DNA of 53,219 bases from Bacteroidales bacterium (GCA_046482735.1 JAWOEL010000112.1:1-53219); one strand, 5' to 3'; shown: positions 5,996 to 40,111, counted from the first letter of the stretch. The notes: a model not told the origin generated them from the sequence alone. A program made the numbers and translations.

Positions 5996-6961
5996 ATGAA
6001 TACTGAACAATTAATAATAAAATACTTAACCAGAGAAAGCACTGCCGAGGAAAATGATGCATTGCTGCAATGGGTACATAGTAGTGCAGCAAACAAAAAA
6101 GAATTTGTTGACACCTGTAAAGTTTGGTATGCTTCCGGAAAGAAACAAGAGGCTGAAAAAATAAACAAAACACATGCGTTTGCTCAATTTAAAAAACGTG
6201 CACACAAAAAAATCACTCAAAAAACAATACAAACTCCATTATGGAAATATACTGCTGCTGCAGCTGCTATTATTATTGTGGCGGTAAGTACTTTTTTTAT
6301 AGTAAACCAACAACAAAAACCAACAACAAAAACAATTGCTAATACAGAAAAAACGGAAAAAAAAGTAACTCTTCCGGATGGTTCTATAATATGCTTACAC
6401 GAAAATGCTACAATAACATTTCCTGCCGAATTCGACAACACAAAGCGTTCTGTATCAATAAACGGCACAGCATATTGTTCTGTTTCGAAAAAAGAAAAAA
6501 AACCTTTTATACTAAAGGGGCACTTAGTATCTGTTAGAGTTCTGGGAACTAAATTTTACATTAATTCATCAACAACACAGGCATCTGTAATTGTCGAATC
6601 GGGCTCGGTACAAGTTACAGACGCACACAATACTGGTGAATCTGTTTTCCTAAAAAAAGGGGAACGTGCTGATATAAATAAACATACAGAGCTTATCAAA
6701 ACAACCAATGCTGATCCGAATTATCTATCATGGAAAACAGGAACGCTTATTTTCAAAAAAACTCCGCTACACAAAGTATTTTCTGATATTGAACGTCATT
6801 ACAACTGCTCAATAATTGTTACCGATGAAACAATATACTCTGAAATACTAACAAGTACATTTGATGATCTTTCTTTACAGGAAGTGTGTACTATGATAAC
6901 ATCTGTATTCCCTTCTATTTCGTATATAAAAGAAGGAAATACCATTACTTTTTATAAATAA
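5996..6961 (+). CDS. FecR-family transmembrane anti-sigma factor
   Basis: N-terminal cytoplasmic segment (LIIKYLTRESTAEENDALLQWV), a single TM (WKYTAAAAAIIIVAVSTFFIV) and a periplasmic FecR-type domain (LPDGSIICLHENATITF ... GTAYCSV ... PFILKG ... VRVLGTKFYI). Confidence 0.85.
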   Translation: MNTEQLIIKYLTRESTAEENDALLQWVHSSAANKKEFVDTCKVWYASGKKQEAEKINKTHAFAQFKKRAHKKITQKTIQTPLWKYTAAAAAIIIVAVSTFFIVNQQQKPTTKTIANTEKTEKKVTLPDGSIICLHENATITFPAEFDNTKRSVSINGTAYCSVSKKEKKPFILKGHLVSVRVLGTKFYINSSTTQASVIVESGSVQVTDAHNTGESVFLKKGERADINKHTELIKTTNADPNYLSWKTGTLIFKKTPLHKVFSDIERHYNCSIIVTDETIYSEILTSTFDDLSLQEVCTMITSVFPSISYIKEGNTITFYK

Positions 6962-6985
6962 TTCTATAATTTACACAAAAAAAGG

Positions 6986-7016
6986 GCATAGTCTATATTC
7001 AGATTATGCTTTTTTT
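6986..7016 (+). terminator. Rho-independent terminator after the FecR gene
   Basis: Stem GCATAGTC (6986-6993) / GATTATGC (7002-7009), 8 bp with one G-U pair, an 8-nt loop, then TTTTTTT (7010-7016). Confidence 0.6.
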
Positions 7017-7049
7017 GTACATTGTCATTTATTACAAAATATGATATAA

Positions 7050-8375
7050 ATGAGATTTTGGGGTATACTAATAAGTATAAAACTACTGTTGATTGCTGGT
7101 AATACATGTATTGCTCAAAACTCATTATTGTCTGTTCCTATATCATACAAAGCACACGAACAAAGTATTGGAAAAATACTAAAAGATTTAGAGAAAAAAA
7201 CACCTGCTCGCTTTACATACAACAGTTCTCTCATAAACACAGAGCAACACGTGTCAATAGATGTTACTAACGAAACTCTGGGAAAAACATTAAATCTATT
7301 ATTTGATAACAAATTCGCATTTCAGCAAATTAATTCTCAAATTATAATTACGCCAAAAAAAAATGCTCCCACACAAAATAATGTGCAAAAAAAACCACCA
7401 CCACAAACACGAACACAAACACGAACACAAACACCTCTACAAGATACAATTTTCGTATACGATACCATTCAACACATACAATACGACACTCTACGATACG
7501 AGATTTATGATACAACATACATAATAGACAGCAGCAAATATTATCGTTCCCAAAAACTACGTACCCGCAACAAATCATCAGTCTTAAATTTTTCAGCTTT
7601 GAGTGGAAATTATTACTCTATTCCTATATTTTGGAACACTGGCACCAATAGTTATTCTCAAGAAATTCAAAAAGCAGAAACAACCGGACAAACAAAACAT
7701 CACAGTATTCTTATACAGTATCTGAATCGCAAATCATCGTATGGAATAGGAATCGAATACATGAATTACACATATACCGCAAACTTTACAACAGAAAACA
7801 CTCATAACGAAACCACATACTTTTCGGATACATTATGGTACTGGCAATATGAGCTTCTCTTTTCATATTACAAATATGTACCGGGACAGGATTCTGTTTT
7901 TATTCCGGTATATGACTCAACGTATACATATTCAATAACAAAAAAACCAAAGAAAACAGAATCCTCCACACAATATAACACACTAAATTCTTATACATAT
8001 ATTGGCATTCCATTTTCGTATGCATACCGACATTTTTTTACTGAAAATATTGAATTACAAACATCTGTTTCTTTTACACCTCTTTTTTTAATTACCAGCA
8101 AAGGCTCTCTTCCCGGAACAAACAATACAACAACAGATCTACACAACTCAAACATTCTAAAAAAAATAAACTATTCATTAACTCTATCCGGCAATTTTCT
8201 TTACTACATTAATAAGTACTATTCCATACACATAAAACCAACGTGCAGATACATACCAACACTCATGAAAAAAGACCTCGCAAATTTTCAAAAATCAACT
8301 ATACATTTTGGTATAGAATGGGGAGCTTCATACACTATACCATATAGTATTCCGAAACGTTTACAGATATTTTAA
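7050..8375 (+). CDS. STN-domain protein fused to a small predicted outer-membrane beta-barrel; not a TonB-dependent transporter
   Basis: Signal peptide MRFWGILISIKLLLIAGNTCIAQ. STN-like segment ISYKAHEQSIGKILKDLEKKTPARFTYNSSL...VSIDVTNETLGKTLNLLFDNKFAFQQINSQIIITP. Low-complexity linker KKPPPQTRTQTRTQTP. About 300 aa of Y/T/S-rich alternating sequence ending ...RLQIF. No plug or TonB-box-like sequence, and at 441 aa it is far too short for a SusC/TBDT. Confidence 0.6.
   Translation: MRFWGILISIKLLLIAGNTCIAQNSLLSVPISYKAHEQSIGKILKDLEKKTPARFTYNSSLINTEQHVSIDVTNETLGKTLNLLFDNKFAFQQINSQIIITPKKNAPTQNNVQKKPPPQTRTQTRTQTPLQDTIFVYDTIQHIQYDTLRYEIYDTTYIIDSSKYYRSQKLRTRNKSSVLNFSALSGNYYSIPIFWNTGTNSYSQEIQKAETTGQTKHHSILIQYLNRKSSYGIGIEYMNYTYTANFTTENTHNETTYFSDTLWYWQYELLFSYYKYVPGQDSVFIPVYDSTYTYSITKKPKKTESSTQYNTLNSYTYIGIPFSYAYRHFFTENIELQTSVSFTPLFLITSKGSLPGTNNTTTDLHNSNILKKINYSLTLSGNFLYYINKYYSIHIKPTCRYIPTLMKKDLANFQKSTIHFGIEWGASYTIPYSIPKRLQIF
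7402..7434 (+). repeat. 12-bp tandem repeat CACAAACACGAA x2.75 inside the STN-protein linker
   Basis: Direct reading gives 7402-7413 and 7414-7425 as identical units, with 7426-7434 a partial third unit. It encodes QTRTQTRTQT. Confidence 0.9.
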
Positions 8376-16242: not shown

Positions 16243-16593
16243 TTATTCTGTTTTAGCAGGTTCGTTTACTTTATTTCTTTTCTTTTCCGAATATGCTATC
16301 GCATGTTTGTCAAGTTTCACGACCAAATTTCGAATTATTCGCTCATCTCGTTTGTACTGAACAGTTAGTTTATCAATAAAACTACTGTCTGCTTTAAACT
16401 CATAAAGGAAATAAAATCCGGTGTGTTTTTTTTGAATCGGGTATGCTAATTTTTTCAAACCCCATGATTCTTTATTTACAATCTCACCTCCATTTTCCTT
16501 TATAAGCTGATCATATTTCTCTACCGATTCCTTTACCTGAGAATCAGATAAAACGGGAGTTAAAATGAAAACGGTTTCATACTGATTTATCAT
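16243..16593 (-). CDS. rpsF: 30S ribosomal protein S6
   Basis: [20 protein letters not shown]... is a typical S6 N-terminus. The longer track ORF (to 16641) would contain the promoter boxes, so the start at 16593 is preferred. Confidence 0.9.
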
Positions 16594-16638
16594 ACAGCTT
16601 ACAATTTTTAATGAATTATTTATAATTAATTTGAGCCG

Positions 16639-16669
16639 CAAAAATACACTTTTTATTTATACACTCAAA
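16639..16669 (-). promoter_or_regulatory. Bacteroidota-type promoter for rpsF-rpsR-rplI
   Basis: On the minus strand, TTTG (16666-16669), a 19-nt spacer, then TATTTTTG (16639-16646). This matches the published -33 TTTG / -7 TAnnTTTG consensus. Confidence 0.55.
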
Positions 16670-17198
16670 TTTTTTTACTTCTTTTCTCTTCATTACTTTG
16701 CTTAGCTCTCTTATTATAACCGTTTTAATCACATATTTTTTTATCATATACAATTTTATGGACATACTATATATAACTATAATTAATTGCGATCTACTAT
16801 TCTAAACATCTGTGTAATACTTATACTGCAAATAAATACAAAAAACGAAGCTGTATGTGTTTGTGTTTTTACGTAACTCTGTCATACATTCAACAAACCA
16901 AAAACATTCATAACAAAAAGATATAAATTTATCAAATTAGTAATATGTTCAATTACACACACAAATAAAAAGGTATAGTCTAAAAAAAACACACCACTTT
17001 ATTTTACAATACAAAAAATTGATTTTCAACAATATAATAACACACACTGTTTTGTGTCACAAAAAAACATGTTAATATTGTATTATGATTTTATCATTTT
17101 TAAGAAGAATATATTGTATTTTGATAGTGAATGATATATTTTTGCTAAAAAATTGAAATCAATCTTTGATTTTTATATTAAAATAATACATTAATACT

Positions 17199-20100
17199 AT
17201 GGAAGAATTTCAAAAAAAATCTTTGTATGACCAGAGTTACGAACATGATGCATGTGGAATAGGTTTTTTAGCAAATCTAAAAGGTAAGAAATCATACAAG
17301 ATTATAGATGATGCACTTAAAATGCTCGAAAACATGGAGCATCGTGGTGCCGTAGGATTTGAAGAAAACACAGGTGATGGTGCCGGCATATTAATACAAA
17401 TACCTCACGATTTTTTTACAGAAGAATGTGATAAAATCGGACTAACCCTTCCTGAATACGGAAAGTATGGTGTAGGTATGATATATTTTCCCGCAGAAGT
17501 TAAAATGCGTGAAGCCTGTCGAAAAATATTTAACGATACTCTCGAACACCTTGGCTTAGAATTGTTGGGTTACAGAAATGTGCCGGTAAACAGAAAAGGT
17601 ATTGGGAAAACAGCTTTATCTACAGAGCCCAAAATAGAGCAAGCTTTTATCATAGCAAAAGACTCATCAATAACCGGTGAAGATTTAGAAAGAAAATTAT
17701 TTGTACTGCGAAATTGGTCATTTAACTTATTCAAAAAAACATTTCCACGACACGCAGAAGATTTTTACATACCAACATTATCCTATAAAACTATAGCATA
17801 CAAAGGGCAATTAACGACCTATCAAGTACGGTCATACTATCTGGATTTACAAAACCCCAAAATGATTTCGGGACTGGCAATGGTTCACTCCCGGTTTTCT
17901 ACCAACACATTCCCTAAATGGAAACTGGCACAACCATTTCGTTATATTGCCCATAATGGTGAAATAAATACTATTAAAGGTAATGTAAATACTGTAGTTT
18001 CTAACGAAACTCTGTTTGAATCGTCATTATTTTCGAAAAAAGATATAGAAAAATTACGTCCTATCTGTGATCATGAAAATTCTGACTCTGCCAACTTAGA
18101 CAACATGATAGAAATGCTTGTTTTAAGTGGGCGGGAATTACCACATGTAATGATGATGCTTATGCCGGAAGCATGGCAAAATGATACAGAAATGCAAGAC
18201 CCCAAAAAAGCATTTTACGAATATCATGCTAATATCGTAGAACCATGGGACGGTCCTGCTTCTGTAAGTTTTACAGATGGGCACATTATTGGTGCCACAC
18301 TAGACCGTAACGGACTCAGACCTTCGCGGTATTCTTTATTAGAAGATGGTACCCTTATTATGGCATCAGAAACTGGTGCATTAAAAATAGACCAAAGCAA
18401 GGTGGTTCAAAAAGGACGTTTAGAACCGGGTAAAATGTTTATCGCAGATTTAAATGAGGGAAGAATTATCAGCGACGAGGAAATCAAACAACGTATTTGC
18501 TCTGAACAGCCATACAGAACATGGATTGAGCAAAACAAGGTGCATATCAATGATATTCCGGAACCTAAAAAACCTACGTATACTTATAATGCAGACACTC
18601 TTACGCAACGACAAATTGCATATGGATATACTCAGGAAACCGTGAAATCTATAATTGCCGAAATGGTCAACAAAAGTGCTGACCCTATAGGTTCTATGGG
18701 TAATGATGCTCCTTTAGCTGTACTTTCCAGACAAGCACGTCACATATCAAACTATTTCAAACAGCAATTTGCTCAGGTTTCGAACCCTCCTATTGATCCC
18801 ATACGGGAAAAAATCATCATGTCATTAAAGACATCGGTTAGTAGATCATTTAATATGCTTTCTATCACATCATTACATGCAAAGCACATTGCATTTGACC
18901 AACCGGTATTGACCAACGAACAAATCGATGCAATCAGATATATTACTCATCCTGACTTTCGGGTTACTCAACTTGATGCTACATTCAAAGCAATTAATGA
19001 ACCCAATAGCCTGGAAGATTCATTAAAGCGTATGTGTGCTGATGCTGATAGTGCAATTATAGACAAAACAACAAATATTCTTATTATTTCTGATCGAAAT
19101 ACCAGCAAAGATCGGGCTGCAATTCCAACGCTGCTTGCAATTGGTGCCCTGCACAATCATTTGGTAAACAATGGATTGCGTGCACGTGTGGGCATTATTA
19201 TTGAAGCTGGTGATGTTGTTGAGACGCATCACTACGCAACTATTATAGGATACGGTGCAAATGCTGTTAACCCATACATGGCATTTGAAACAATTACCTC
19301 TTTACAACGAGGTAAATATATAAAAAACAAAACTACTGAAGAGGCTAACGAAGCATACATAAACGCTATCGGAGCTGGTTTGCTCAAAATATTCTCTAAA
19401 ATGGGAATTTCAACACTTCAGTCATACCGAGGTGCACAAATATTTGAATGTTACGGTTTAGGTGAAAATATTATTAATCTTTGTTTTAAAGGTACTGTAT
19501 CGAAAATTGGTGGTATGGACTTTAAAGATATTGCCAAAGAAACATTGGTAAAACACTTTGCAGCCTACCCCGAAAAACCTATTGTAAACCAACGTCTCGA
19601 AGAGGGAGGAATTCATCAATGGAAACATCGTGGTGAAAAACACTTGTTTAATCCTCAAACTATTAGCCTCCTGCAACAAGCTGTTCGTACAGATGATTAC
19701 GAACTATACAAACAATACGCACAATTAATCAACGAACAACATGATCAACAATTTACTTTGCGTAGTTTACTCGATTTTAAAGGAAACAGAAAAGCTATTT
19801 CGATTGACGAAGTAGAACCTGCTGAAAACATCTACAAACGTTTTGCCACAGGTGCTATGTCGTTTGGTTCTATATCGTACGAAGCTCACTCTACCCTCGC
19901 AATCGCAATGAACAAATTAGGCGGAAAATCAAATTCCGGTGAAGGTGGTGAAGATGAAATACGCTTTGTGCAAAAAGAAAACGGCGACTGGGAACGTTCT
20001 GCAATTAAACAGGTTGCTTCCGGTAGATTTGGAGTAACATCTCATTATCTTGCAAATTGTAATGAGATTCAAATAAAAATGGCACAAGGTGCAAAACCCG

Positions 20101-21725
20101 GCGAAGGTGGTCAATTGCCAGGACACAAGGTTGATGAATGGATTGGTAGAGTGCGTCATTCCACTCCTGGTGTAGGATTAATTTCTCCACCACCACATCA
20201 CGATATTTATTCGATTGAAGATTTGGCACAGTTAATTTTTGATTTGAAAAATGCTAATCCGGATGCACATATAAATGTAAAATTAGTTTCGAAAGCCGGT
20301 GTCGGCACAATTGCTGCCGGTGTTGCAAAAGCATTTGCAGACAAAGTTCTTATTTCAGGTCACGACGGGGGCACAGGTGCTTCTCCGGTTTCATCTATCC
20401 ATCATTGCGGATCTCCTTGGGAAATGGGACTTGCAGAAACTCACCAAACACTTGTTATAAATAAACTCCGCGATCGGATAATTGTACAATCTGACGGTCA
20501 AATGAAATCGGGTCGTGATTTAGCTATTGCGACATTACTGGGAGCTGAGGAATGGGGAGTTGCTACTGCTGCTCTTGTTGCCGAGGGATGTATTATGATG
20601 CGCAAATGCCATTTAAACACATGCCCCGTTGGAGTTGCAACTCAAAACAAAGACTTACGCAAAGTCTTTAAAGGTAAACCTGAACATGTTATGAATTTAT
20701 TTAAATTTATGACGCAGGAATTACGTGAGATTATGGCTGCAAACGGATTTAAATCTATCAATGAAATGGTGGGCCAGTCTAATATTCTTCGCCAACGCGA
20801 TGATTTGGCATACTGGAAAGTTCAAAAATTAAATTTAGATCCTATTATTTATCAAGTACCCTCTGATCCTGATATTAAAACATACCATTCAAAAGATCAA
20901 AAACATGCCATTCATTCCATATTGGATAGAAAACTAATTGAAAAAGCATTACCTGCAATTAAAAACGGCTCTAAAGTTACTGAAGAATTTGACATTATCA
21001 ACACAGACCGAGCTGTGGGCACAATGCTTTCTCATGAAATTTCAAAAAAATATGGCAACAACGGATTGCCTGAAAATACAATCAATTACACATTTACCGG
21101 ATCCGCTGGTCAATCTTTTGCAGCATTTGGACAAAGTGGTTTAACCTTTAGAGTTTTTGGTGATGCTAATGATTACTTTGGTAAGGGATTGTCTGGAGCT
21201 AAACTAATTATCAGACCAAATCAAAAATCCAACTTTGCTCCCGAAAAAAATGTACTTATTGGTAATGTAGCTTTTTACGGTGCTACAAGTGGTGAGGCAT
21301 ATATTCGCGGAGTAGCGGGCGAACGATTTTGTATTCGAAATTCCGGTGTGCAAACAGTTGTTGAGGGAATTGGTAATCACGGATGCGAATATATGACCGG
21401 AGGAACTGTTGTTGTGCTTGGAAAATTTGGTATGAATTTCGCTGCCGGAATGAGTGGTGGTATTGCTTATATTTACGATCCTGAACATATATTTGATTTG
21501 TATTGTAATAAAGCATCGGTTGATTTAGAAAAAGTTCCGTTTGAAGATGTGAATTTGCTCAAAACACTCATCACGAATCATCAAAAATATACTGATAGCA
21601 CAGTAGCCTCTCAGGTTTTAGAAAATTGGGATGATGCTCTGGAAAGTTTTGTAAAAGTATATCCACGCGATTTCAAACGAGTAATTGAAGAACGCAAAAA
21701 AATGGAAGCTGCTGCTGCTGAATAA
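17199..21725 (+). CDS. gltB: Glutamate synthase large subunit
   Basis: 1508 aa. N-terminal amidotransferase start ...YEHDACGIGFLA, a central FMN-binding region and a C-terminal GXGXG-type domain. Confidence 0.97.
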   Translation: MEEFQKKSLYDQSYEHDACGIGFLANLKGKKSYKIIDDALKMLENMEHRGAVGFEENTGDGAGILIQIPHDFFTEECDKIGLTLPEYGKYGVGMIYFPAEVKMREACRKIFNDTLEHLGLELLGYRNVPVNRKGIGKTALSTEPKIEQAFIIAKDSSITGEDLERKLFVLRNWSFNLFKKTFPRHAEDFYIPTLSYKTIAYKGQLTTYQVRSYYLDLQNPKMISGLAMVHSRFSTNTFPKWKLAQPFRYIAHNGEINTIKGNVNTVVSNETLFESSLFSKKDIEKLRPICDHENSDSANLDNMIEMLVLSGRELPHVMMMLMPEAWQNDTEMQDPKKAFYEYHANIVEPWDGPASVSFTDGHIIGATLDRNGLRPSRYSLLEDGTLIMASETGALKIDQSKVVQKGRLEPGKMFIADLNEGRIISDEEIKQRICSEQPYRTWIEQNKVHINDIPEPKKPTYTYNADTLTQRQIAYGYTQETVKSIIAEMVNKSADPIGSMGNDAPLAVLSRQARHISNYFKQQFAQVSNPPIDPIREKIIMSLKTSVSRSFNMLSITSLHAKHIAFDQPVLTNEQIDAIRYITHPDFRVTQLDATFKAINEPNSLEDSLKRMCADADSAIIDKTTNILIISDRNTSKDRAAIPTLLAIGALHNHLVNNGLRARVGIIIEAGDVVETHHYATIIGYGANAVNPYMAFETITSLQRGKYIKNKTTEEANEAYINAIGAGLLKIFSKMGISTLQSYRGAQIFECYGLGENIINLCFKGTVSKIGGMDFKDIAKETLVKHFAAYPEKPIVNQRLEEGGIHQWKHRGEKHLFNPQTISLLQQAVRTDDYELYKQYAQLINEQHDQQFTLRSLLDFKGNRKAISIDEVEPAENIYKRFATGAMSFGSISYEAHSTLAIAMNKLGGKSNSGEGGEDEIRFVQKENGDWERSAIKQVASGRFGVTSHYLANCNEIQIKMAQGAKPGEGGQLPGHKVDEWIGRVRHSTPGVGLISPPPHHDIYSIEDLAQLIFDLKNANPDAHINVKLVSKAGVGTIAAGVAKAFADKVLISGHDGGTGASPVSSIHHCGSPWEMGLAETHQTLVINKLRDRIIVQSDGQMKSGRDLAIATLLGAEEWGVATAALVAEGCIMMRKCHLNTCPVGVATQNKDLRKVFKGKPEHVMNLFKFMTQELREIMAANGFKSINEMVGQSNILRQRDDLAYWKVQKLNLDPIIYQVPSDPDIKTYHSKDQKHAIHSILDRKLIEKALPAIKNGSKVTEEFDIINTDRAVGTMLSHEISKKYGNNGLPENTINYTFTGSAGQSFAAFGQSGLTFRVFGDANDYFGKGLSGAKLIIRPNQKSNFAPEKNVLIGNVAFYGATSGEAYIRGVAGERFCIRNSGVQTVVEGIGNHGCEYMTGGTVVVLGKFGMNFAAGMSGGIAYIYDPEHIFDLYCNKASVDLEKVPFEDVNLLKTLITNHQKYTDSTVASQVLENWDDALESFVKVYPRDFKRVIEERKKMEAAAAE

Positions 21726-33730: not shown

Positions 33731-35326
33731 ATGAAAAAAATTTTATTTGCACTCACGACATTAATTATTTTTTCCGGTTGTGCTACAATGCTGTTACCCA
33801 GACATCAACCAATCACACTCAAAACCAAGAACAAAGATGCAGAAGTTTATATAAATAACGAAAAAGTTGGTGAAGGCTCACAAATCTCAAAACGAATCCG
33901 AAAAAAAGGCACAAGCCAAATCGTGGTAAAAACACCAGAATATAAAGATTCATATCATTGTTTGGTGGCACATAAAAGACCGGCAGCATATTGGCCTCTT
34001 CACATAATATCAACTATTTCAATTTATGGTATATTTGAAAAATATGCTCATAATTGTTTTAAATATCCTGACATTACTATCTGTGAGCCAAAAACAAAAA
34101 TCCCGCACCGAACTGAGGATTTAAAATATGTAAACTTAAATGCCATAAAGTTAGATATTGAAAATGCTGATCGCCAAATTTTGGCTATCACCATGTCATA
34201 TAAAGATTATTTAAGCAATAAATTTCATGTTTTGGAACAAAAAGAAAAAAACAAAATTGCGAAAAAAGAATTAAGGAAAAAAGACGAAAAAGAAGACGAA
34301 AAGGTATTACTTGAATCCAAAGATGAAATCAATAGCATAAAATTTGATGACACTAAGTTTTCAAACGATATAAAAGATGCTCTTATTAAATCGGGATTTA
34401 CCGATACTATCAATGAAATTTTCTTTGACAATAACAATACACTCCACATTGAAGCTCTCATTAGCAATATTACATTATTCAAAATTAAAAGTGCATCAAC
34501 TAACGATTTTCACAAAATAAAACTTGGTATAAAATGGTTTATGAAAAATAATTTTGGAGAAACCATTGATTCAGTTTCTCACAATTCGTATTCAGGTGAT
34601 TTTGTGAAATTTGATGTTGAAGATATGACACGCGATGCTATTGAAAAATCATATTTATCCTTATTTGAAAAAGAATCATTCAAAAAAGAATTACAATATA
34701 TAAAAACACTCGATGCTCCTGAAAAAACTACAAAAATAGATGTGAGCTGGAAACACTATATAAAAGATGCCAGCGAAGCTAACCAAGCTACCGTTATTAT
34801 TAAAAAAGGTGAAGGTCATGGTTCCGGCTTTGCTATATCACCTGATGGATACATCATAACAAACTACCACGTGGTTGCTTCGGAATATATTGACAAAAAA
34901 GACTCTCTTACTATTGTATTACACAACGGTCTGGAATATCCGGCACATATAGTAACAAAAAACAAATATCGGGATTTAGTACTTCTGAAAATTGATGCCC
35001 AAATTGATAAAACATTTAAACTTCCGACTCAGAAAAATTATAAAAATCTAGAAGAGGTTTATGCAATTGGCACACCGCAATCTGTTGAATTAGGACAATC
35101 TGTTTCGACCGGTATTATTTCTTCTGAACGAAATGTAAACAAAAATACATACATACAGTTAAACATGTCGCTTAACAGTGGTAACAGCGGCGGCCCTCTT
35201 CTTAATAAGAGTGGTGATCTTAACGGTGTTATTGTTGCAAAATTATTCGGTTTTGGTGTTGAAGGAATTAGTTTTGCAATACCAGCATATAAAATAACAG
35301 AATACCTAAACATTACGCCTATATAG
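33731..35326 (+). CDS. Lipoprotein with an N-terminal PEGA-like domain and a C-terminal trypsin-like (S1) serine protease domain
   Basis: Lipobox IIFSGC. PEGA-like ITLKTKNKDAEVYINNEKVGEG...IVVKTPEYKD. Catalytic-triad contexts ITNYHVV (His), RDLVLLKI (Asp) and GNSGGPLL (Ser). Confidence 0.8.
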   Translation: MKKILFALTTLIIFSGCATMLLPRHQPITLKTKNKDAEVYINNEKVGEGSQISKRIRKKGTSQIVVKTPEYKDSYHCLVAHKRPAAYWPLHIISTISIYGIFEKYAHNCFKYPDITICEPKTKIPHRTEDLKYVNLNAIKLDIENADRQILAITMSYKDYLSNKFHVLEQKEKNKIAKKELRKKDEKEDEKVLLESKDEINSIKFDDTKFSNDIKDALIKSGFTDTINEIFFDNNNTLHIEALISNITLFKIKSASTNDFHKIKLGIKWFMKNNFGETIDSVSHNSYSGDFVKFDVEDMTRDAIEKSYLSLFEKESFKKELQYIKTLDAPEKTTKIDVSWKHYIKDASEANQATVIIKKGEGHGSGFAISPDGYIITNYHVVASEYIDKKDSLTIVLHNGLEYPAHIVTKNKYRDLVLLKIDAQIDKTFKLPTQKNYKNLEEVYAIGTPQSVELGQSVSTGIISSERNVNKNTYIQLNMSLNSGNSGGPLLNKSGDLNGVIVAKLFGFGVEGISFAIPAYKITEYLNITPI

Positions 35327-35353
35327 TATGTAAATTTTATATACTATTTTTTT

Positions 35354-35391
35354 AAGAGCTTAGGTTTATTATTACAAAAATCTAAGCTCTT
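35354..35391 (+). terminator. Terminator-like hairpin after the protease gene
   Basis: 10-bp stem AAGAGCTTAG (35354-35363) / CTAAGCTCTT (35382-35391) with an 18-nt loop, followed by ATTATTT. The loop is long for a classical terminator. Confidence 0.45.
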
Positions 35392-35666
35392 ATTATTTAA
35401 ACACATTATAACTATACGTAGGTGTGTAAATATAAAAACAGGGTTTATCGTACACAATCTTACCGGTTATATGATTACGTTAAAAAAACACAGCAACAAA
35501 ATGATTGTACCCGAACATCCACAAGAAACAACACGAGAACAACTCATACGATTAACCGAGTTTGTGTCTGTCTGTGTACGTTTTGTAAAAAGGGGACATT
35601 AGTACCATTTCCATGAACGACCTCGCATGCGAAGTCCTAACAATAAATCTAAGCCATTGAAAACCC

Positions 35667-35729
35667 ATAGATTTAATTCAACCGGGAATTCGCATCGGGG
35701 GTTGTGTGGTGGTTGAATTTCTGGTTATT
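35667..35729. repeat. Repeat family A, copy 1, on the 3' flank of the Fic cassette
   Basis: ATAGATTTAATTCAACCGGGAATTCGCATCGGGGGTTGTGTGGTGGTTGAATTTCTGGTTATT. About 54 of 63 columns match copy 2 in my hand alignment. It contains the 8-bp inverted repeat ATTCAACC (35676-35683) / GGTTGAAT (35711-35718). Confidence 0.85.
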
Positions 35730-35797
35730 GTGCCACGTTTTTTAATTTTCTTCACGTATCAATTAGGACTAAAATCAATTTTGTCAGCGTTTTTATA

Positions 35798-36350
35798 TCA
35801 CTGTTTATAGTCCCTTGCATATACTTGGTCATAAACATTTTTATTGTCGGGTGGGTTTAGATTTAATGTTAATCCTTTTTCCGATGCTACTAATCTTAAA
35901 AATTCTCTTTGTGATCGCCCGTTTCCTTCTCTGAATGGATGCAGGTAATTCACATTATCCAAAATTTCAGCTAATTTCTTTGCTATCTGCAGCTTGTTCC
36001 TTTTTGATATGCTTCTATAATCCGAAATTAATGTATCAATAAAACGAAAAGCATTGTCAAAATGTGTGGTTGGAAAAAATTGTTTACCAGCTTTACTTAT
36101 CTCAACCTTTCGTCTTTTCCCAGCCCAAGTAAACATCTTGAAACAAGTGTCTATGAATACTCAAAAGGCTATCTACTCCTTTTATTTTAATAGGTTTTTC
36201 GTAAAGTTCTTGAATACGTTTTGCAACAACTGCACTTTCAAAAAAGAGTAAATCATCCGAGTCCGTAATATTTGCTAAATTTCTTAGAATTCCAGTTTTT
36301 GGGTCGGTATAGATGTAATCGAGGTCAATATATTTGTATGAATCAGGCAT
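35798..36350 (-). pseudogene. Fic-domain toxin (AMPylase type), disrupted by a frameshift
   Basis: Track ORFs 36102..36350 (...LLSIHRHLFQDVYLGWEK) and 35798..36136 (..WAGKRRKVEISKAG...HPFREGNGRSQREF) join into one Fic protein if 1 nt near 36128 is removed (DVY|WAGK). The canonical HxFx(D/E)GNGRxxR motif is present. Total length is 553 nt, which is 3n+1. Confidence 0.8.
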
Positions 36351-36564
36351 ACGATTTGTCCTTAGCGAATTTTATTAACTCGGGCAATGTGATTTTTCCA
36401 ATCATATAATCTCTAATTATCTCAATACTTTTGGGAGTTGGTTTAAACCCTTCAAACATATTACTCCCAATTGCATTTGCAGTACTTTCCAAAGTTTTTA
36501 AATTAGAAAATTTCACCCCCATAATAGTCAGGTTTTTACGGTCTATATTTATCGTATTAAACAT
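36343..36564 (-). CDS. VbhA/FicA-like antitoxin
   Basis: 73 aa, overlapping the Fic start by 8 nt. It carries the inhibitory (S/T)xxxE(G/N) motif as SNMFEG (36448-36465), followed by ...IIRDYMIGKITLPELI as in VbhA. Confidence 0.75.
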   Translation of the reverse strand: MFNTINIDRKNLTIMGVKFSNLKTLESTANAIGSNMFEGFKPTPKSIEIIRDYMIGKITLPELIKFAKDKSYA

Positions 36565-36590
36565 ATTCTATCTTTTTCAATTAATCATCA

Positions 36591-36598
36591 CAAATTTA
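36591..36598 (-). promoter_or_regulatory. -7 box TAAATTTG upstream of the Fic antitoxin gene
   Basis: The minus strand reads TAAATTTGTGAT, which matches TAnnTTTG, 27 nt before the ATG. No clear -33 TTTG. The same 12-mer precedes the second cassette. Confidence 0.4.
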
Positions 36599-36682
36599 AT
36601 CATTTTCAGCCAATTTTTCCTTGTATGCGACAGTTTCCTCAAATGGTGGCATAACGTCAGTCTCCCAAAATAATCGGAACAA

Positions 36683-36765
36683 GCTGTCTCAAAACCTCCC
36701 ATCATTTCCTCTATTTTCAATAAAAGTACATTTTTTTTTTGGACACCGAGAAAAAATCGCAAAAC
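36683..36765 (-). mobile_element. Repeat family B, copy 1: solo end fragment of the IS1182-like remnant
   Basis: GCTGTCTCAAAACCTCCC...TATTTTCAATAAAAGTACATTTTTTTTTTGGACACCGAGAAAAAATCGCAAAAC aligns along its whole length with 37734-37816. It lacks the transposase N-terminal piece and the second inverted repeat. Confidence 0.65.
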
Positions 36766-36815
36766 TTTTAATCTGCGTGTGTTTTCTGAAACTAACCTCT
36801 ACCTTTTTTAAATTT

Positions 36816-36876
36816 ATAGATTTAGTTCAACCGGGAATTTGCATTGGGGGGTGTGTGGGGGGGATTTCTGGTTATT
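36816..36876. repeat. Repeat family A, copy 2, on the 3' flank of the zeta-like cassette
   Basis: ATAGATTTAGTTCAACCGGGAATTTGCATTGGGGGGTGTGTGGGGGGGATTTCTGGTTATT. It ends 12 nt before the zeta-like stop codon. It keeps GTTCAAC (36825-36831), but the partner arm is replaced by a G-run with a 2-nt gap. Confidence 0.85.
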
Positions 36877-36888
36877 TGGCAATAGTGC

Positions 36889-37494
36889 TTACATTTCTTG
36901 TATTAAATTATATATTTTAGGCAATCTATGTTTAAAATATTTTGGAATATTCTCTGTCATTAAAATAATCTCCTTATTTTCAATTTGTAAGATATTCGTA
37001 TATACTTCATTTGAAGCAGAATTATCTACAAAAAGAACATTGTCAAAAAAATTAAAATGAATATTCACATTTTTATATCCGGCTTTCCATTTAATATCAA
37101 TTGTGTCCTCATCCACAAAATGTCCTTTAAATTCAGTCCGAACTTGAACTCTATGTTTGGCAATGTCTTGATTATCTATACAAAAAAATATTAAATTCAA
37201 ACGATATCCATATTTTTTAAATTTTACAGCCCAATAAATTGGATGTTGATCGAAGTTAGTTTCGTAACAAAAATCTAATTTTGCAGCAAGTACTTTTTCT
37301 ATTGTTTACTTAAATGTTTCAGTGGTTTGATTTCTTGCTATTACGTCTCGCAATTCACTATCAGGAAGACTATTGTAATTCTCAAGATATAGCCTATCAT
37401 AGTCAAATAAACTTAGCCCTTATGGGAGAAAGGATGATGCAAATGTTGATTTTCCAGCACCATTACATCCTGCTATAACAATTAAATCAGGCAT
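36889..37494 (-). pseudogene. Zeta-toxin / COG4185-like P-loop kinase with two in-frame TAA codons
   Basis: My translation from ATG 37494 stays in a single frame of 202 codons: MPDLIVIAGCNGAGKSTFASSFLP*GLSLFDYD...ETFK*TIEKVLAAKLDFCYETNFDQ...YGYRLNLIFFCIDNQDIAKHRVQVRTEFKGHFVDEDTI...FVDNS. Stops lie at 37420-37422 and 37306-37308. Walker A GCNGAGKST. The track shows only the last 103 aa. Confidence 0.75.
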
Positions 37495-37654
37495 TGGGAT
37501 TTAGAGTGTTATTAAGTTCTTTACTTAATTTTCCCTCTTTTTTTCTAATCTGAAATAGCTCTTCTCTAGGAATCACTTGACTATACAAAATATTCCTAGC
37601 TTTACTCATTTGTTGAGTAACTTTTATTCCAGTTATTAGTTTTTCTTTACACAT
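37487..37654 (-). CDS. Small ORF (55 aa, or 40 aa from the second ATG at 37609): candidate antitoxin of the zeta-like kinase
   Basis: Not in the ORF track because it is under 61 aa. MCKEKLITGIKVTQQMSKARNILYSQVIPREELFQIRKKEGKLSKELNNTLNPNA. Its TGA overlaps the kinase start (ATGCCTGA), a typical TA coupling. The -7-like box lies only 5 nt upstream of the first ATG, so the second ATG may be the real start. Confidence 0.45.
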   Translation of the reverse strand: MCKEKLITGIKVTQQMSKARNILYSQVIPREELFQIRKKEGKLSKELNNTLNPNA

Positions 37655-37658
37655 ATCA

Positions 37659-37666
37659 CAAATTTA
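37659..37666 (-). promoter_or_regulatory. -7 box TAAATTTG upstream of the second cassette
   Basis: The minus strand reads TAAATTTGTGAT, the same 12-mer as at 36587-36598. Confidence 0.35.
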
Positions 37667-37727
37667 TAACTTTTTTTGATTTTTAGAATAATTCATTAGT
37701 TTTTTCTCTTCCCAGCATTATTGCTAA

Positions 37728-38016
37728 CCGCAGTCTGTCTCAAAACCTCCCGCCATTTTTTATATTTTCAATAAAAGTACGTTTTTTTTCGGAATACGGA
37801 GAAAAAAAAGCAACACAAAAGCATCTATCAATCGAACATCATTCTCCGGCGAAACAACATCATCAAGGCAGCTTGCAAACAGTGTGGTTTGTTTCCGGTT
37901 TTGTCCCTGAATATACGTACATATAATTCGGTCTATTTTGTATTGTTTGATGCTTAAAAATACAAAAAAATCTGAATATTTGGGTATAAAATAGAGGTTT
38001 TTAGACAGCCTGACGG
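37728..38016 (-). mobile_element. Internally deleted IS1182/IS5-like element (MITE-like remnant) with both inverted repeats
   Basis: The inverted repeats CTGTCTCAAAACCTC (37735-37749) and GAGGTTTTTAGACAG (37994-38008) match 14/15 as reverse complements, with an extended match CCG.CAG.CTGTCT. Between them the minus strand encodes YIQGQNRKQTTLFASCLDDVVSPENDVRLIDAFV (37814-37915), the conserved N-terminus of IS1182-family (DUF772) transposases. It has no in-frame ATG and stops at 37760. Confidence 0.7.
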
Positions 38017-38151
38017 CGTTTTATTGTATGGTGTCGTGCGGAGTTACGTATCAATTTATCAGTTTACACCGACTTTTTTTTACGAGCCACAAACGCTCGC
38101 ACACCTCTAAAACCCGCATGCACTATACCATGTGTTGTGTGCTTGACATTG

Positions 38152-39657
38152 TTAGTCATTCAGTTTTTTATTTAACAATCCTAAAATTTCATCATCTATT
38201 TCTCTTCCATATCGGTAATTCGTAATTGTATCTTCTTCGACAATAATTTCTGCACCCTTTTCGATTAATAATTTAACCATATCTTTATCATTTCGTTCAA
38301 TCGCAGCAATTAAAGGTGTTTGCCAAAATGAATATTTATTTGCATCATTTATGTCTGTTCGCTCATCTCCATAATAATTTCGCTTGATTGCAAAATTTAC
38401 TTTGGCTCCATTTTCTAACAATTGTTCGATTATCGAAATATTCCCTTTTTCAACTGCAATAAGTAATGGATAACCAATCTCGTAATATGATGGTTGTTCA
38501 AGTATTTCACCATTATATTCATCGTAAAAAATATTGATATCAGCACCATTTCTAATATATAAATCTACTAATGCTGTATCTTCTTCGTTAATGGCTGTAT
38601 ATAATGGAGAAATAACCTGTCCAGAATTACCTTCTCCTGCCCAAAAATATACATAGTTTGTATGTGCACCATTTTGTATTAGAATCTTTGCAACATCAAA
38701 ACTTCTTGCATGACATAAAGTTTTACTTAAAATCTCTTTGTTATCTGTTAGGGTGATTAACTTATTTAAAATTAGGGTATCATTATCTATAATCGAATGC
38801 TCTAATGGTGTTGATTTCCATTTATAATTTTTTGAGTCGGGATATGGAAAGTTATTTTTTATTAGAAAATTTAAAGTCGTTGTATCTTGGAATTGAAGTT
38901 TATGATAGTATGAATTTCCTGATGTTAATTCTTCCCACCCCCACCATAAACAAATGGATACGTCTTTATTTGCTCCGTTTTCAAGAAGTAATGTAGCCAA
39001 ATCCCAGTTTTTATTCATTATTACAGGCTCAAGAGGTTGAAGGTTACCTTCTTCTAAATATACTTTTGCTCCATTTTTAATCAAATATTCAACCAAATGT
39101 GTATTTTGATTTTTTGCAGCTATGAAAATTGCAGATTTTTCACACAGACAACCACAGCCTCCACCTTGTTCGAAATTTTCGTAGTATTTCTCAGTCCAAT
39201 TTATATCTAATCCTTGGTCAAGCATTATCTCAATACTGTCAATATTTCCTGTTTCACAGTAATTAAGATATTTTTTAATCAGGGAATTAATATCAAGAGC
39301 TCCAAGTTCAATTAATTTCTTTACTATCAAGGGTTTTATTGAATCATCCTTTCTTCGATTAGCTATAAGTAATGGATAGACACCTTCCTTGTCAATATAA
39401 TTTACATTTGCTCCATTATTTATTAATTCAATAATTTTTAAAGTGTCGTTGCCTTTCTGTATTTCATCAAACAAAGCTATGTGAACATCTTGTTCCTTAT
39501 TGTGTTCTGAAATTCCTTTTTCCAAAGGTTCATTTTCTATTATCTCAAATTTATTCTGATTTAATTCAGCCTTTGTCTTTTTATTCCCTGAAGAATTATT
39601 TGAGCACTGAATAAAAACCAATGATATTAAAATCGCTATTACTACTTTTATCTTCAT
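38152..39657 (-). CDS. Ankyrin-repeat lipoprotein
   Basis: Start at MKIKVVIAILISLVFIQCSNN (39657, lipobox); an alternative ATG lies at 39672. At least 7 ankyrin-type repeats (NGANVNYIDKEGVYPLLIA, NGAKVY, NGANKD, NGAHTNY, NGADINI, NGAKVNF, KGAEII). Confidence 0.8.
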   Translation of the reverse strand: MKIKVVIAILISLVFIQCSNNSSGNKKTKAELNQNKFEIIENEPLEKGISEHNKEQDVHIALFDEIQKGNDTLKIIELINNGANVNYIDKEGVYPLLIANRRKDDSIKPLIVKKLIELGALDINSLIKKYLNYCETGNIDSIEIMLDQGLDINWTEKYYENFEQGGGCGCLCEKSAIFIAAKNQNTHLVEYLIKNGAKVYLEEGNLQPLEPVIMNKNWDLATLLLENGANKDVSICLWWGWEELTSGNSYYHKLQFQDTTTLNFLIKNNFPYPDSKNYKWKSTPLEHSIIDNDTLILNKLITLTDNKEILSKTLCHARSFDVAKILIQNGAHTNYVYFWAGEGNSGQVISPLYTAINEEDTALVDLYIRNGADINIFYDEYNGEILEQPSYYEIGYPLLIAVEKGNISIIEQLLENGAKVNFAIKRNYYGDERTDINDANKYSFWQTPLIAAIERNDKDMVKLLIEKGAEIIVEEDTITNYRYGREIDDEILGLLNKKLND

Positions 39658-39815
39658 TCTATGTATTTTCATTGCACGATATCGTCTCCTTGCCTTGCAC
39701 ACAACTTCATTTATATGTATATGTATTATAAAATCACACATATACGCCATAAAAATGATTGCTCTGTATGATTATGTACTGTTTTATTTTTTGATTCAAA
39801 TATAGTTTTTTTATA

Positions 39816-39990
39816 CACATCATCAAAGGGTGATGTAATCTTTTGGATGCTCTTGTTGCTCACATGTGCGTAACTTTCTGCGGTCTTGAATATCGTGGAG
39901 GTGTGACATTCTTTCTTTTAAGACTCTCTAAAAATTTATGCGTACAATTGAAATTCCACAACTTTTTGACTTGTCCTCCACCTGCTATCC
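39816..39990 (-). pseudogene. Remnant of the C-terminal catalytic region of a tyrosine recombinase/integrase
   Basis: The minus strand at 39816-39896 reads TIFKTAESYAHVSNKSIQKITSPFDDV (compare ..TTxIYTHVSxxxLxKIxSPxDxL, with the catalytic Tyr). Shifted frames upstream give ..FNCTHKFLESL.. and ..HLHDIQD.., resembling HxLRH..LLE.G and DLRxIQ. Only about 60 codons remain, in multiple frames. Confidence 0.4.
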
Positions 39991-39995
39991 ACCAT

Positions 39996-40036
39996 AAAAA
40001 AAACCAAAAAAAAAGCCCCTGAAAAAATCAGAGGCT
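39996..40036 (-). terminator. Rho-independent terminator of tRNA-Phe
   Basis: Stem 40014-40022 / 40028-40036 (9 bp, one mismatch) with a 5-nt loop. On the minus strand it is followed by TTTTTTTTGGTTTTTTTT. Confidence 0.7.
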
Positions 40037-40038
40037 TG

Positions 40039-40111
40039 TGGTAACGGGCGGGATCGAACCGCCGACACCAGGATTTTCAGTCCTGTGCTCTACCGACTGA
40101 GCTACATTACC
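40039..40111 (-). tRNA. tRNA-Phe (anticodon GAA)
   Basis: Hand-folded cloverleaf: GGTAATG TA GCTC AGTCGGTA GAGC A CAGGA CTGAAAA TCCTG GTGTC GGCGG TTCGATC CCGCC CGTTACC A. 73 nt with a 7-bp acceptor stem including one G-U pair. CCA is not encoded. Confidence 0.95.

Follow-up and report, generated by a model that had tools for sequence, protein, structure and literature searches.

Gene content of the region beside tRNA-Phe

The DNA analyzed here, which we call the window, is one whole 53,219-nt metagenome contig of an uncultured member of the Bacteroidota with ~31% GC. Our subject is the 4.6 kb that adjoin its tRNA-Phe gene (35392-40038), in which all units lie on the minus strand. A first-pass annotation, made from the sequence alone, had correctly located a tRNA, a recombinase remnant, an ankyrin lipoprotein gene, an IS1182-like insertion sequence (IS), and zeta and Fic cassettes here, and had described the whole as a decayed genomic island inserted beside the tRNA. 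We propose that the region is a decayed chromosomal integron-like platform, and put the probability of this reading at roughly 80%. Along the minus strand, the order of parts would be the 3' stump of an Xer/IntI-like integrase gene, an attI-like site, and three cassettes that each end in an attC-type site.

The stump shares the strand of the tRNA, lies ~50-150 nt downstream of it, and has the orientation of the cassette genes. It is the C-terminus of a tyrosine recombinase gene (39816-39927, minus strand) that has lost its stop codon, and its solid part (39816-39887) consists of the last 24 codons, KTAESYAHVSNKSIQKITSPFDDV. In tblastn searches of the window, the stump matched the C-terminus of a 347-aa Chryseobacterium “site-specific tyrosine recombinase/integron integrase” (16/24 identities; E = 2e-5 over 39887-39816), which bears out the integrase similarity claimed by the first-pass annotation, and also the integrase at the head of a related array, L024 (E = 0.002). 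Across 7.3 Gb of plasmids, annotated integrases hold 11 of the 14 tblastn matches to the remnant. The remnant had been given as ~60 codons. A frameshift-tolerant alignment extends it to ~39927 only, and upstream of 39888 the score was reached by 231/500 and 32/500 shuffles, which is no better than shuffled DNA; therefore ~24 to 37 codons are supported, not 60, and the longer pseudogene was dropped. A protein search with a 55-aa frameshift-mended remnant returned no candidates. Because so little of the integrase is left, the array is no longer serviced in cis. The N-terminus of the window gene is missing, and what remains is closest to simple Xer/IntI-like recombinases (NF040815, TIGR02249, XerC/D); by this similarity we assign it to that class and not to the island or phage integrases.

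Close relatives of the window were compared as short Logan contigs of wastewater metagenomes (runs X1 to X6; 85-97% identity). The linkage of tRNA and stump is common to them and is therefore old. In X1, X3, X4, and X6 the stump is still shorter, with 39883-39951 replaced by 8 nt, i.e., a further deletion of ~61 to 69 nt.

Between the integrase end and the first cassette lies an attI-like spacer of ~110 nt (39706-39815, minus strand), with the crossover at G39705|T39704, where the window reads AATGAAG|TTGTGTGC. Contigs of four runs match the window over 39718-39807 and then diverge at AATGRRG|TT, continuing as AATGGG|TTGGTAGC in X1, AATGGGG|TGGTAAAC in X2 and X5, and AATGAG|TTAGCAGC in X4. At least three other sequences thus stand at G|TT in related populations, so the first-cassette position is variable in the window's clade. 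Counting the window itself, the clade has four continuations behind a fixed G|TT (window, X1, X2/X5, and X4), the arrangement of attI and cassettes that characterizes integrons.

Other contigs that share the attI segment differ from the window more broadly. A 7108-nt Logan contig of X1 has only 39718-39791 in common with it (93% identity), and its ~6 kb on the integrase side are <80% like the window; the contig may be an intact-integrase version of the platform. In X1, X3, X5, and X6 the attI region is fused at 39765 to the middle of a junction repeat called D4 below (equivalent to window ~36851). These relatives are without the ankyrin cassette, the IS remnant, and the zeta cassette, and the fusion appears to be a deletion variant.

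Three cassettes and their junctions

Cassette 1 (38011-39705, minus strand) holds an intact open reading frame (ORF) for an ankyrin lipoprotein (38152-39669; Pfam Ank, 4.9e-26) whose signal peptide ends in Cys. Its true start is probably 39669 or 39654, as the listed start at 39750, which gives 532 aa, straddles the cassette junction. Directly 3' of the stop codon lies a 131-nt attC (38011-38141). The first 9 nt of the cassette, GTTGTGTGC, are the reverse complement of the R'' box of this site, GCACACAAC (38142-38134), at 9/9 positions. The site was also recognized by R1, a covariance model built from 17 attC sites of L015, an unrelated Bacteroidota genome; the consensus stem of the R1 alignment has 27 pairs, 14 of them with compensatory changes. 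The sole significant R1 match in the window is 38011-38141 on the minus strand, at full length (32.7 bits, E = 6.7e-6). This stretch has the imperfect palindrome, the R''..AAC and R' GTT.. ends, and the conserved stem of an attC, and its R' box is degenerate (CGCCG|TCAGG, G at 38014). A third copy of the D4 repeat after the ankyrin gene was considered and rejected, as the alignment was weak and the sequence there is the L015-type attC.

Exactly at the R' box of this attC (..CGCCG|TCAGG-CTGTCT..) sits an internally deleted IS1182-family element of 282 nt (37731-38012, minus strand) that resembles a miniature inverted-repeat transposable element (MITE). Its 19-nt inverted repeats (left, 38012-37994; right, 37749-37731) agree at 17/19 positions, and 33 N-terminal transposase codons remain (37912-37814). 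In a tblastn search, the fragment matched 201 plasmid records at transposases annotated as IS1182 family, with a best E of 2e-6 and 59% identity over 34 aa. The element thus retains the N-terminal transposase region and the terminal inverted repeats of the family, and its interior is deleted, so it has no DDE domain.

Cassette 2 (36816-37728, minus strand) starts at G37728|TTAGCAATAATGC and ends in a junction repeat, D4b (36888-36816). It contains an intact 55-aa ORF (37487-37654), a putative antitoxin with no family match, followed by a zeta-toxin pseudogene (36889-37494). The pseudogene scores 32.1 bits against PF06414 (cut-off, 22.3) and keeps the P-loop GCNGAGKST. It is interrupted by two in-frame TAA codons (37422-37420 and 37308-37306), the two nonsense codons that had been noticed earlier, and at these positions the relatives' zeta codons are GAA (Glu) and TTA (Leu). 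After the zeta stop comes GCACTATTGC-CAAA-TAAC, the 5' end of D4b, which complements the start of the same cassette (GCAcTATTGC-(CAAA)-TAAC versus GTTAGCAATAaTGC). The unit travels alone, over 36816-37728, at ~95% identity in Logan contigs. Three loci in other genomes (L021:4282-4554, L022, and L023) carry its first 273 nt (window 37727-37456) at 97.8% identity with an identical 55-aa ORF. In these copies the toxin is cut off after ~14 codons, and the L021 copy adjoins ExbD/MotA/LemA/M48 genes and is not in an array.

Cassette 3 (35656-36655, minus strand) starts at G36655|TTATGCCAC and ends in D4a (35736-35656). Its VbhA/FicA antitoxin gene is intact (36343-36564), with a marginal score against PF18495 (24.7 bits; cut-off, 25.9). 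The Fic pseudogene behind it (35752-36350) scores 55.8 bits against PF02661 and keeps the motif HPFREGNGR (HPFREGNGRSQR); its match to the VbhT model NF045983 (4.5e-26) stays below the equivalog cut-off. The cassette thus pairs a Fic motif with an upstream VbhA/FicA-type antitoxin, as in Fic/VbhA modules. The gene had been called frameshifted, and it is, but by two frameshifts and not one: relative to an intact, 95.4%-identical copy in L019, it has lost 2 nt at ~36130 and gained 1 nt (G) at 35824. Across its full length, the mended protein shares 87-93% identity with >120 clusters of Bacteroidota metagenome proteins, all intact at 199 aa; most of these are encoded on 1- to 3-kb contigs, as expected of repeat-flanked cassettes in assemblies.

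After the Fic stop, GTGGCA-CAA-TAAC forms the 5' end of D4a and complements the start of the cassette (GTGGCA-(CAA)-TAAC versus GTTATGCCAC). The zeta and Fic units therefore share a cassette-specific complementarity with a conserved 3- to 4-nt CAA(A) bulge, and in all three units of the window the R'' side complements the unit's own start, which in each case is G|TT. Homology to foreign Fic cassettes with different junctions (L016 to L018) runs exactly from 36656 to 35736, and in Logan contigs the Fic unit (35661-36840) is a separate module at ~95% identity.

Both antitoxins are intact in the window and both toxins are broken, a pattern that fits toxin loss first, with the antitoxins retained; these may have an anti-addiction role. 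The decay reads as lineage-specific when the copies are compared, with the zeta stops and Fic frameshifts in the window and the extra stump deletion in the relatives. Both toxin genes also begin ATGCCTGA(T) (MPD...; window 37487-37497 and 36343-36353) and overlap the antitoxin stop alike, though the two toxin-antitoxin (TA) families are unrelated.

The junctions behind cassettes 2 and 3 involve two repeats, D4 and D1. The D4 copies (35667-35712 versus 36816-36861) are 89% identical, and in the D4 body the stretch that runs from the invariant GAAATCC to CCG(G)TT is collinear with the right arm of the attC type found in L015. In relatives, D4 is always followed by D1 after 13 to 30 variable nt, and D1 ends 6 to 29 nt before the next G|TTA. 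Junction repeats are several-fold deeper than modules in Logan contigs; in X1 the D4 core, with many different flanks, reaches a depth of 710x versus 17-20x for single cassettes (~35- to 40-fold). We read the D4-spacer-D1 composite (~235 nt) as the putative attC of the window's lineage. D4 on its own was also tried as a canonical short attC hairpin and rejected, since it folds no better than shuffles (z = +0.24, +0.82, -0.33, and -0.56). A scan of JGI metagenomes for the D4 motif gave 0 matches.

D1 has a second affinity. D1b (37816-37735, minus strand) stands at the right end of the IS1182 element, fused to the transposase fragment, and D1a (36657-36790, minus strand) is 83% identical to it over 82 nt (36684-36765 versus 37735-37816). 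D1 closes with 19 nt that repeat the left end of the IS1182 fragment in inverted orientation, and D1a ends in an IS-type inverted repeat, GAGGTTTTGAGACAG (36698-36684). This tail and the attachment of D1b to the transposase sequence make D1 look like a right end of IS1182. For D1a, which is 94% identical in L019 and L020 and lies upstream of the same Fic cassette there, there are two readings, a remnant of an IS1182 right end and the 3' part of a long attC. As for the origin of D1, either an IS end was absorbed early into the attC of this lineage or IS1182 inserted repeatedly beside R' boxes. At its start, between the zeta and Fic cassettes, D1a has a terminator-like hairpin (36777-36758) followed by a T-run (CGCAGATTAAAAGTTTTGCG ATTTTTT).

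Related arrays and integrases elsewhere in Bacteroidota

The clearest relative of the array lies in L015, a 3.97-Mb genome contig, in which VbhA-Fic stands within at least 15 co-oriented small ORFs separated by 132- to 134-nt repeats. The end of each repeat reads ..CCGTT(A/G)xxxxxx, and its reverse complement, xxxxxx(C/T)AAC, opens the repeat that follows; this relation of start and R'' is diagnostic for a cassette carrying its own attC. The integrase gene of this array was not among the 20.6 kb of the contig that were covered. In seven further metagenome loci, R1 detects an attC on either side of the Fic cassette; across L007 to L015, Fic lies between R1-positive attC sites. The L015 array is itself interrupted by IS1595-, IS110-, and IS3-type transposase genes (6763-7703, 16377-17732, and 18876-20128).

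One of these loci, L010, includes the end of an integrase gene. It starts with an integrase C-terminus, ..KIYTHVSNLNLSKITSPGDLINI*, and 190 nt later ..CACGTAG|TTGTGCCCC marks where the Fic cassette begins. Five further contigs from other samples (L024 to L028) were recovered when metagenomes were scanned with the 3'-terminal part of this integrase gene. Common to all six are the integrase (482-487 aa) and the 190-nt spacer, and directly after CACGTAG|TT stand six different sequences. In 5/5 cases tested, the insert opens with 10 nt that recur, exactly and in reverse complement, at the 5' end of the R1-positive attC next downstream. The first cassettes are 216 to 4409 nt long. Judged by these junctions, the spacer behaves as an active attI, with six first cassettes seen in one population. 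The spacer of the window has the same architecture, and the C-terminus of the L024-type integrase (..YTHVSNLNLSKITSP..) matches the window remnant. No tRNA gene was found in at least 5.6 kb of flanking DNA upstream of the integrase in L024-type platforms.

NF040815 (site-specific tyrosine recombinase/integron integrase; cut-off, 220) is the best profile for both the Chryseobacterium integrase (221 bits) and the array-head integrase (205 bits), and below cut-off both also match XerC/XerD and TIGR02249 (integron integrase). Against the latter, L024:5636-7084 reaches 176 bits in two stretches (cut-off, 265). Among solved structures, the best matches are archaeal XerA-type proteins and VchIntIA. 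When the L024 protein is aligned to VchIntIA (2a3v), residues 8-207 and 244-316 are matched, and the IntI insertion (~208-243) has no counterpart.

The 4.4-kb first cassette at the active attI of L025 (1588-5959, minus strand) encodes a 356-aa protein with a GNAT domain and a second protein, of 1088 aa, that combines a sacsin-like P-loop with a weak PD-(D/E)XK match. This cassette looks like a captured defense system. Just upstream of R1-positive attC sites, L007:4832-8214 encodes a DNA methylase (N-terminal Arm-DNA-bind_5 match) and an MvaI/BcnI-type endonuclease, which may be a restriction-modification cassette at the array head. On the Chryseobacterium oryzae plasmid that holds the integrase homolog, an IS91-family transposase gene overlaps a second, shorter tyrosine recombinase gene (L006:7030-8972).

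How the array may have formed, and alternatives

In an intact version of the platform, the integrase would act on attI and on the folded attC of a circular cassette and recombine the two at G|TT. Each newcomer would enter directly behind the integrase, and older cassettes would shift down the array. In the window, an IS1182-type element has landed at an attC R' box and would later have lost its interior, and the toxin genes have been knocked out with the antitoxins surviving. Recombination would presumably act on single-stranded attC, and the order of events given here is likewise our reconstruction.

Several observations weigh against an integron-like platform. R1 recognizes one of the three window junctions; neither D4-D1 junction gives an R1 match or a fold better than that of shuffles (z, +0.2 to +1.5), both contain an IS1182-type end, and the full D4-D1 junction folds worse than shuffles (z, ~+1.5). 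No circular cassette, the product of recombination, was seen. The window integrase is too short for classification beyond its C-terminal motif, and the related intact integrase, as compared by profile and structure, is not a canonical IntI, so the term integron does not apply in the strict sense. In addition, no run holds the window strain (share of words, ≤0.13), so the stops and frameshifts specific to the window could be assembly errors.

Did the region instead arise as a classical island that entered tRNA-Phe site-specifically at its 3' end by means of its own integrase and then decayed? The first-pass annotation was right that the DNA is accessory, strain-variable, and decaying, and that a recombinase remnant stands at its start. 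An integrase remnant so close downstream of the tRNA and on its strand, content that is all accessory or broken, and a tRNA-remnant linkage kept in relatives are what such an island would leave. Integration into tRNA-Phe is another matter. A direct repeat of the tRNA 3' end had not been found at the distal boundary, and this holds for the whole window: a search with 22 nt and ≤3 mismatches found no copy, and the best hits in the region were 7- to 9-mers expected by chance. The remnant matches Xer/IntI-like recombinases rather than island-type integrases, the interior is built cassette by cassette with attC logic, relatives vary from one point 110 nt behind the integrase end and not at island borders, and L024-type platforms show no tRNA in the flanking DNA covered. 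We found no indication that tRNA-Phe served as the integration target, and the junction is explained equally well by a deletion that began at the tRNA terminator and reached into the integrase gene. A classical tRNA island is thus improbable. We give still slightly less credence to an intergenic junkyard produced by IS and MITE activity and illegitimate recombination, in which D1 and D4 would be MITE fragments and the TA modules independent selfish arrivals. The IS1182-like terminal inverted repeat of D1 and its fusion to the fragment at 37816 are in keeping with such an origin, as are the ~35- to 40-fold excess of the D4 core over single cassettes in X1 and the lack of a convincing fold in the D4-D1 junction. 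MITEs, however, leave unexplained the cassette-specific complementarity between unit starts and the sequence 5' of D4, the R1-positive attC after the ankyrin gene, the integrase stump with its variable first position, and the collinearity of D4 with the right arm of a bona fide attC.

If the region is a decayed integron-like platform, as we propose, a subsidiary question is whether the array still functions because an intact integrase encoded at another place in the genome services it in trans, with the local stump irrelevant. The first cassette differs among close relatives though all carry the stump, some in a shorter form, and the 7108-nt contig of X1 matches the window only at attI (39718-39791) and differs on the integrase side. 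This variation could, however, predate the loss of the integrase. The attC of the ankyrin cassette has a mutated R' box (GTC) and is interrupted by the IS remnant, and the window, as a single 53-kb contig, leaves no place to look for a second integrase. We regard trans service as doubtful, though clearly less so than either of the two alternatives above.

Relation to known systems

Integrons are the best-known bacterial gene-capture devices. The window is similar to sedentary chromosomal integrons and to clusters of attC sites lacking an integron integrase (CALIN) in having a unidirectional array of mostly small ORFs and imperfect-palindrome sites with AAC...GTT ends. It also resembles them in that R'' complements the start of its own cassette, insertion occurs at G|TT behind attI, and TA cassettes are present. 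CALINs are defined by the lack of an integron integrase (Cury et al. 2016, PMC4889954; Neron et al. 2022, PMC9024848). With one R1-supported attC, two D4-type sites, and no functional integrase, the window has the make-up of a CALIN (at least two attC sites), and its integrase was lost or pseudogenised, as proposed for CALINs. Unlike sedentary integrons, the related platform has an intact integrase without the IntI-specific insertion. Its attC sites belong to a Bacteroidota-specific family of 131 to 134 nt, and two window junctions are D4-D1 composites of ~235 nt. An integron integrase is defined by an IntI-specific additional domain around patch III (Messier and Roy 2001, as cited in PMC9668308; PMC8138268). 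Bacteroidota are among the phyla with integrons detected (PMC9668308), and in the IntegronFinder 2.0 paper Bacteroidetes had only In0 elements and one complete integron, that of Salinibacter ruber; by that account, complete genomes of Bacteroidetes are almost devoid of integrons (PMC9024848). In its comparison with known integrons, the window departs in the integrase class of its intact relatives, in the family and length of attC, and in host phylum.

A single strand carries the integrase 3' end, attI, and the cassettes in the window, L010, and L024 to L028, and this is also the layout of integrons of the Treponema denticola type. In these “inverted” integrons the integrase is transcribed toward the cassettes and is a canonical IntI with the additional domain, which the L024-type integrase is without. 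P4-type and CTnDOT-type tRNA-linked islands share with the window accessory DNA and an integrase gene beside the 3' side of a tRNA; the window differs from them in having no tRNA-derived repeat, no integrase of the arm-binding class, and an interior that is a cassette array. Mobile elements that target attC include the IS1111-attC group and group IIC-attC introns, and as with these, the window has a mobile element in or at an attC R' end, with IS1182-type ends that precede the G|TT of the following cassette by 6 nt and 29 nt. Unlike the IS1111-attC group, the element here is IS1182, for which we know of no report of an attC preference, and two occurrences are too few to claim attC targeting. 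The TA genes recall VbhA/VbhT-FicA/FicT modules (the motif HPFREGNGR and a VbhA-like antitoxin overlapping the toxin start) and epsilon/zeta modules (a Zeta_toxin P-loop kinase fold preceded by a small ORF). In contrast to both, the window toxins are inactivated, and the 55-aa ORF has no family match.

Taken together, the window may point to something wider, for which we judge the odds to fall slightly short of even. Integron-like platforms may be widespread in Bacteroidota, with an Xer-like recombinase that would have no IntI-specific domain, would carry an N-terminal extension of ~200 aa, and would be transcribed toward attI. Their attC sites would be 131 to 134 nt long (to ~235 nt in one lineage), detection based on IntI would miss them, and the window would be a decayed member beside tRNA-Phe with IS1182-type insertions at R' boxes. 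In the papers searched we found no description of these Bacteroidota arrays, which is not proof that there is none. The loci reached from the window place attC-type arrays in several metagenome populations of the phylum. If confirmed, such platforms would broaden integron-like systems both in taxonomic range and in how their protein is defined, and would offer a natural test of whether the IntI insertion is needed for attC recombination. The window copy is decayed and non-autonomous, and the related loci (L010, L015, and L024 to L028) are the more interesting ones; the window points to a little-described cassette system in Bacteroidota. Annotation of this region should list the ankyrin lipoprotein, both TA remnants, and the IS fragment as cassettes and debris of a dead platform, not as cargo of a tRNA island.

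Host, flanks, and array tail

The flanks are as the first-pass annotation had described them, a protease operon on one side and tRNA-Phe, a CoA-binding protein gene, and lepA on the other. tRNA-Phe(GAA) (40038-40111, minus strand) was identified by ARAGORN and Rfam (72.5 bits) and is flank, not demonstrably part of the element; a terminator scan placed its terminator hairpin at 40037-40013. The tRNA was the only match in an Rfam scan of the window, and a composition profile showed no GC contrast between region and flanks. Exact look-ups of the window protease, LepA, and the CoA-binding protein gave no record, and a scan of genome contigs with the protease gave a sole match, in Fimbriiglobus, at 32% identity. 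The closest homolog of the protease (75% aa identity) is in a metagenome-assembled genome labeled “Bacteroidales bacterium,” where CheB/CheR genes lie downstream, unlike in the window.

On the left, the gene of the trypsin-like protease ends at 35326 and is followed by a long hairpin, the terminator of the protease operon (~35345-35391). The array tail (35392-35655, minus strand) abuts this terminator and contains no ORF. Pieces of relatives' contigs share 35483-35635 with it, and at ~35470 there is a possible degenerate attC start, ATAACCGGTAAGATT.

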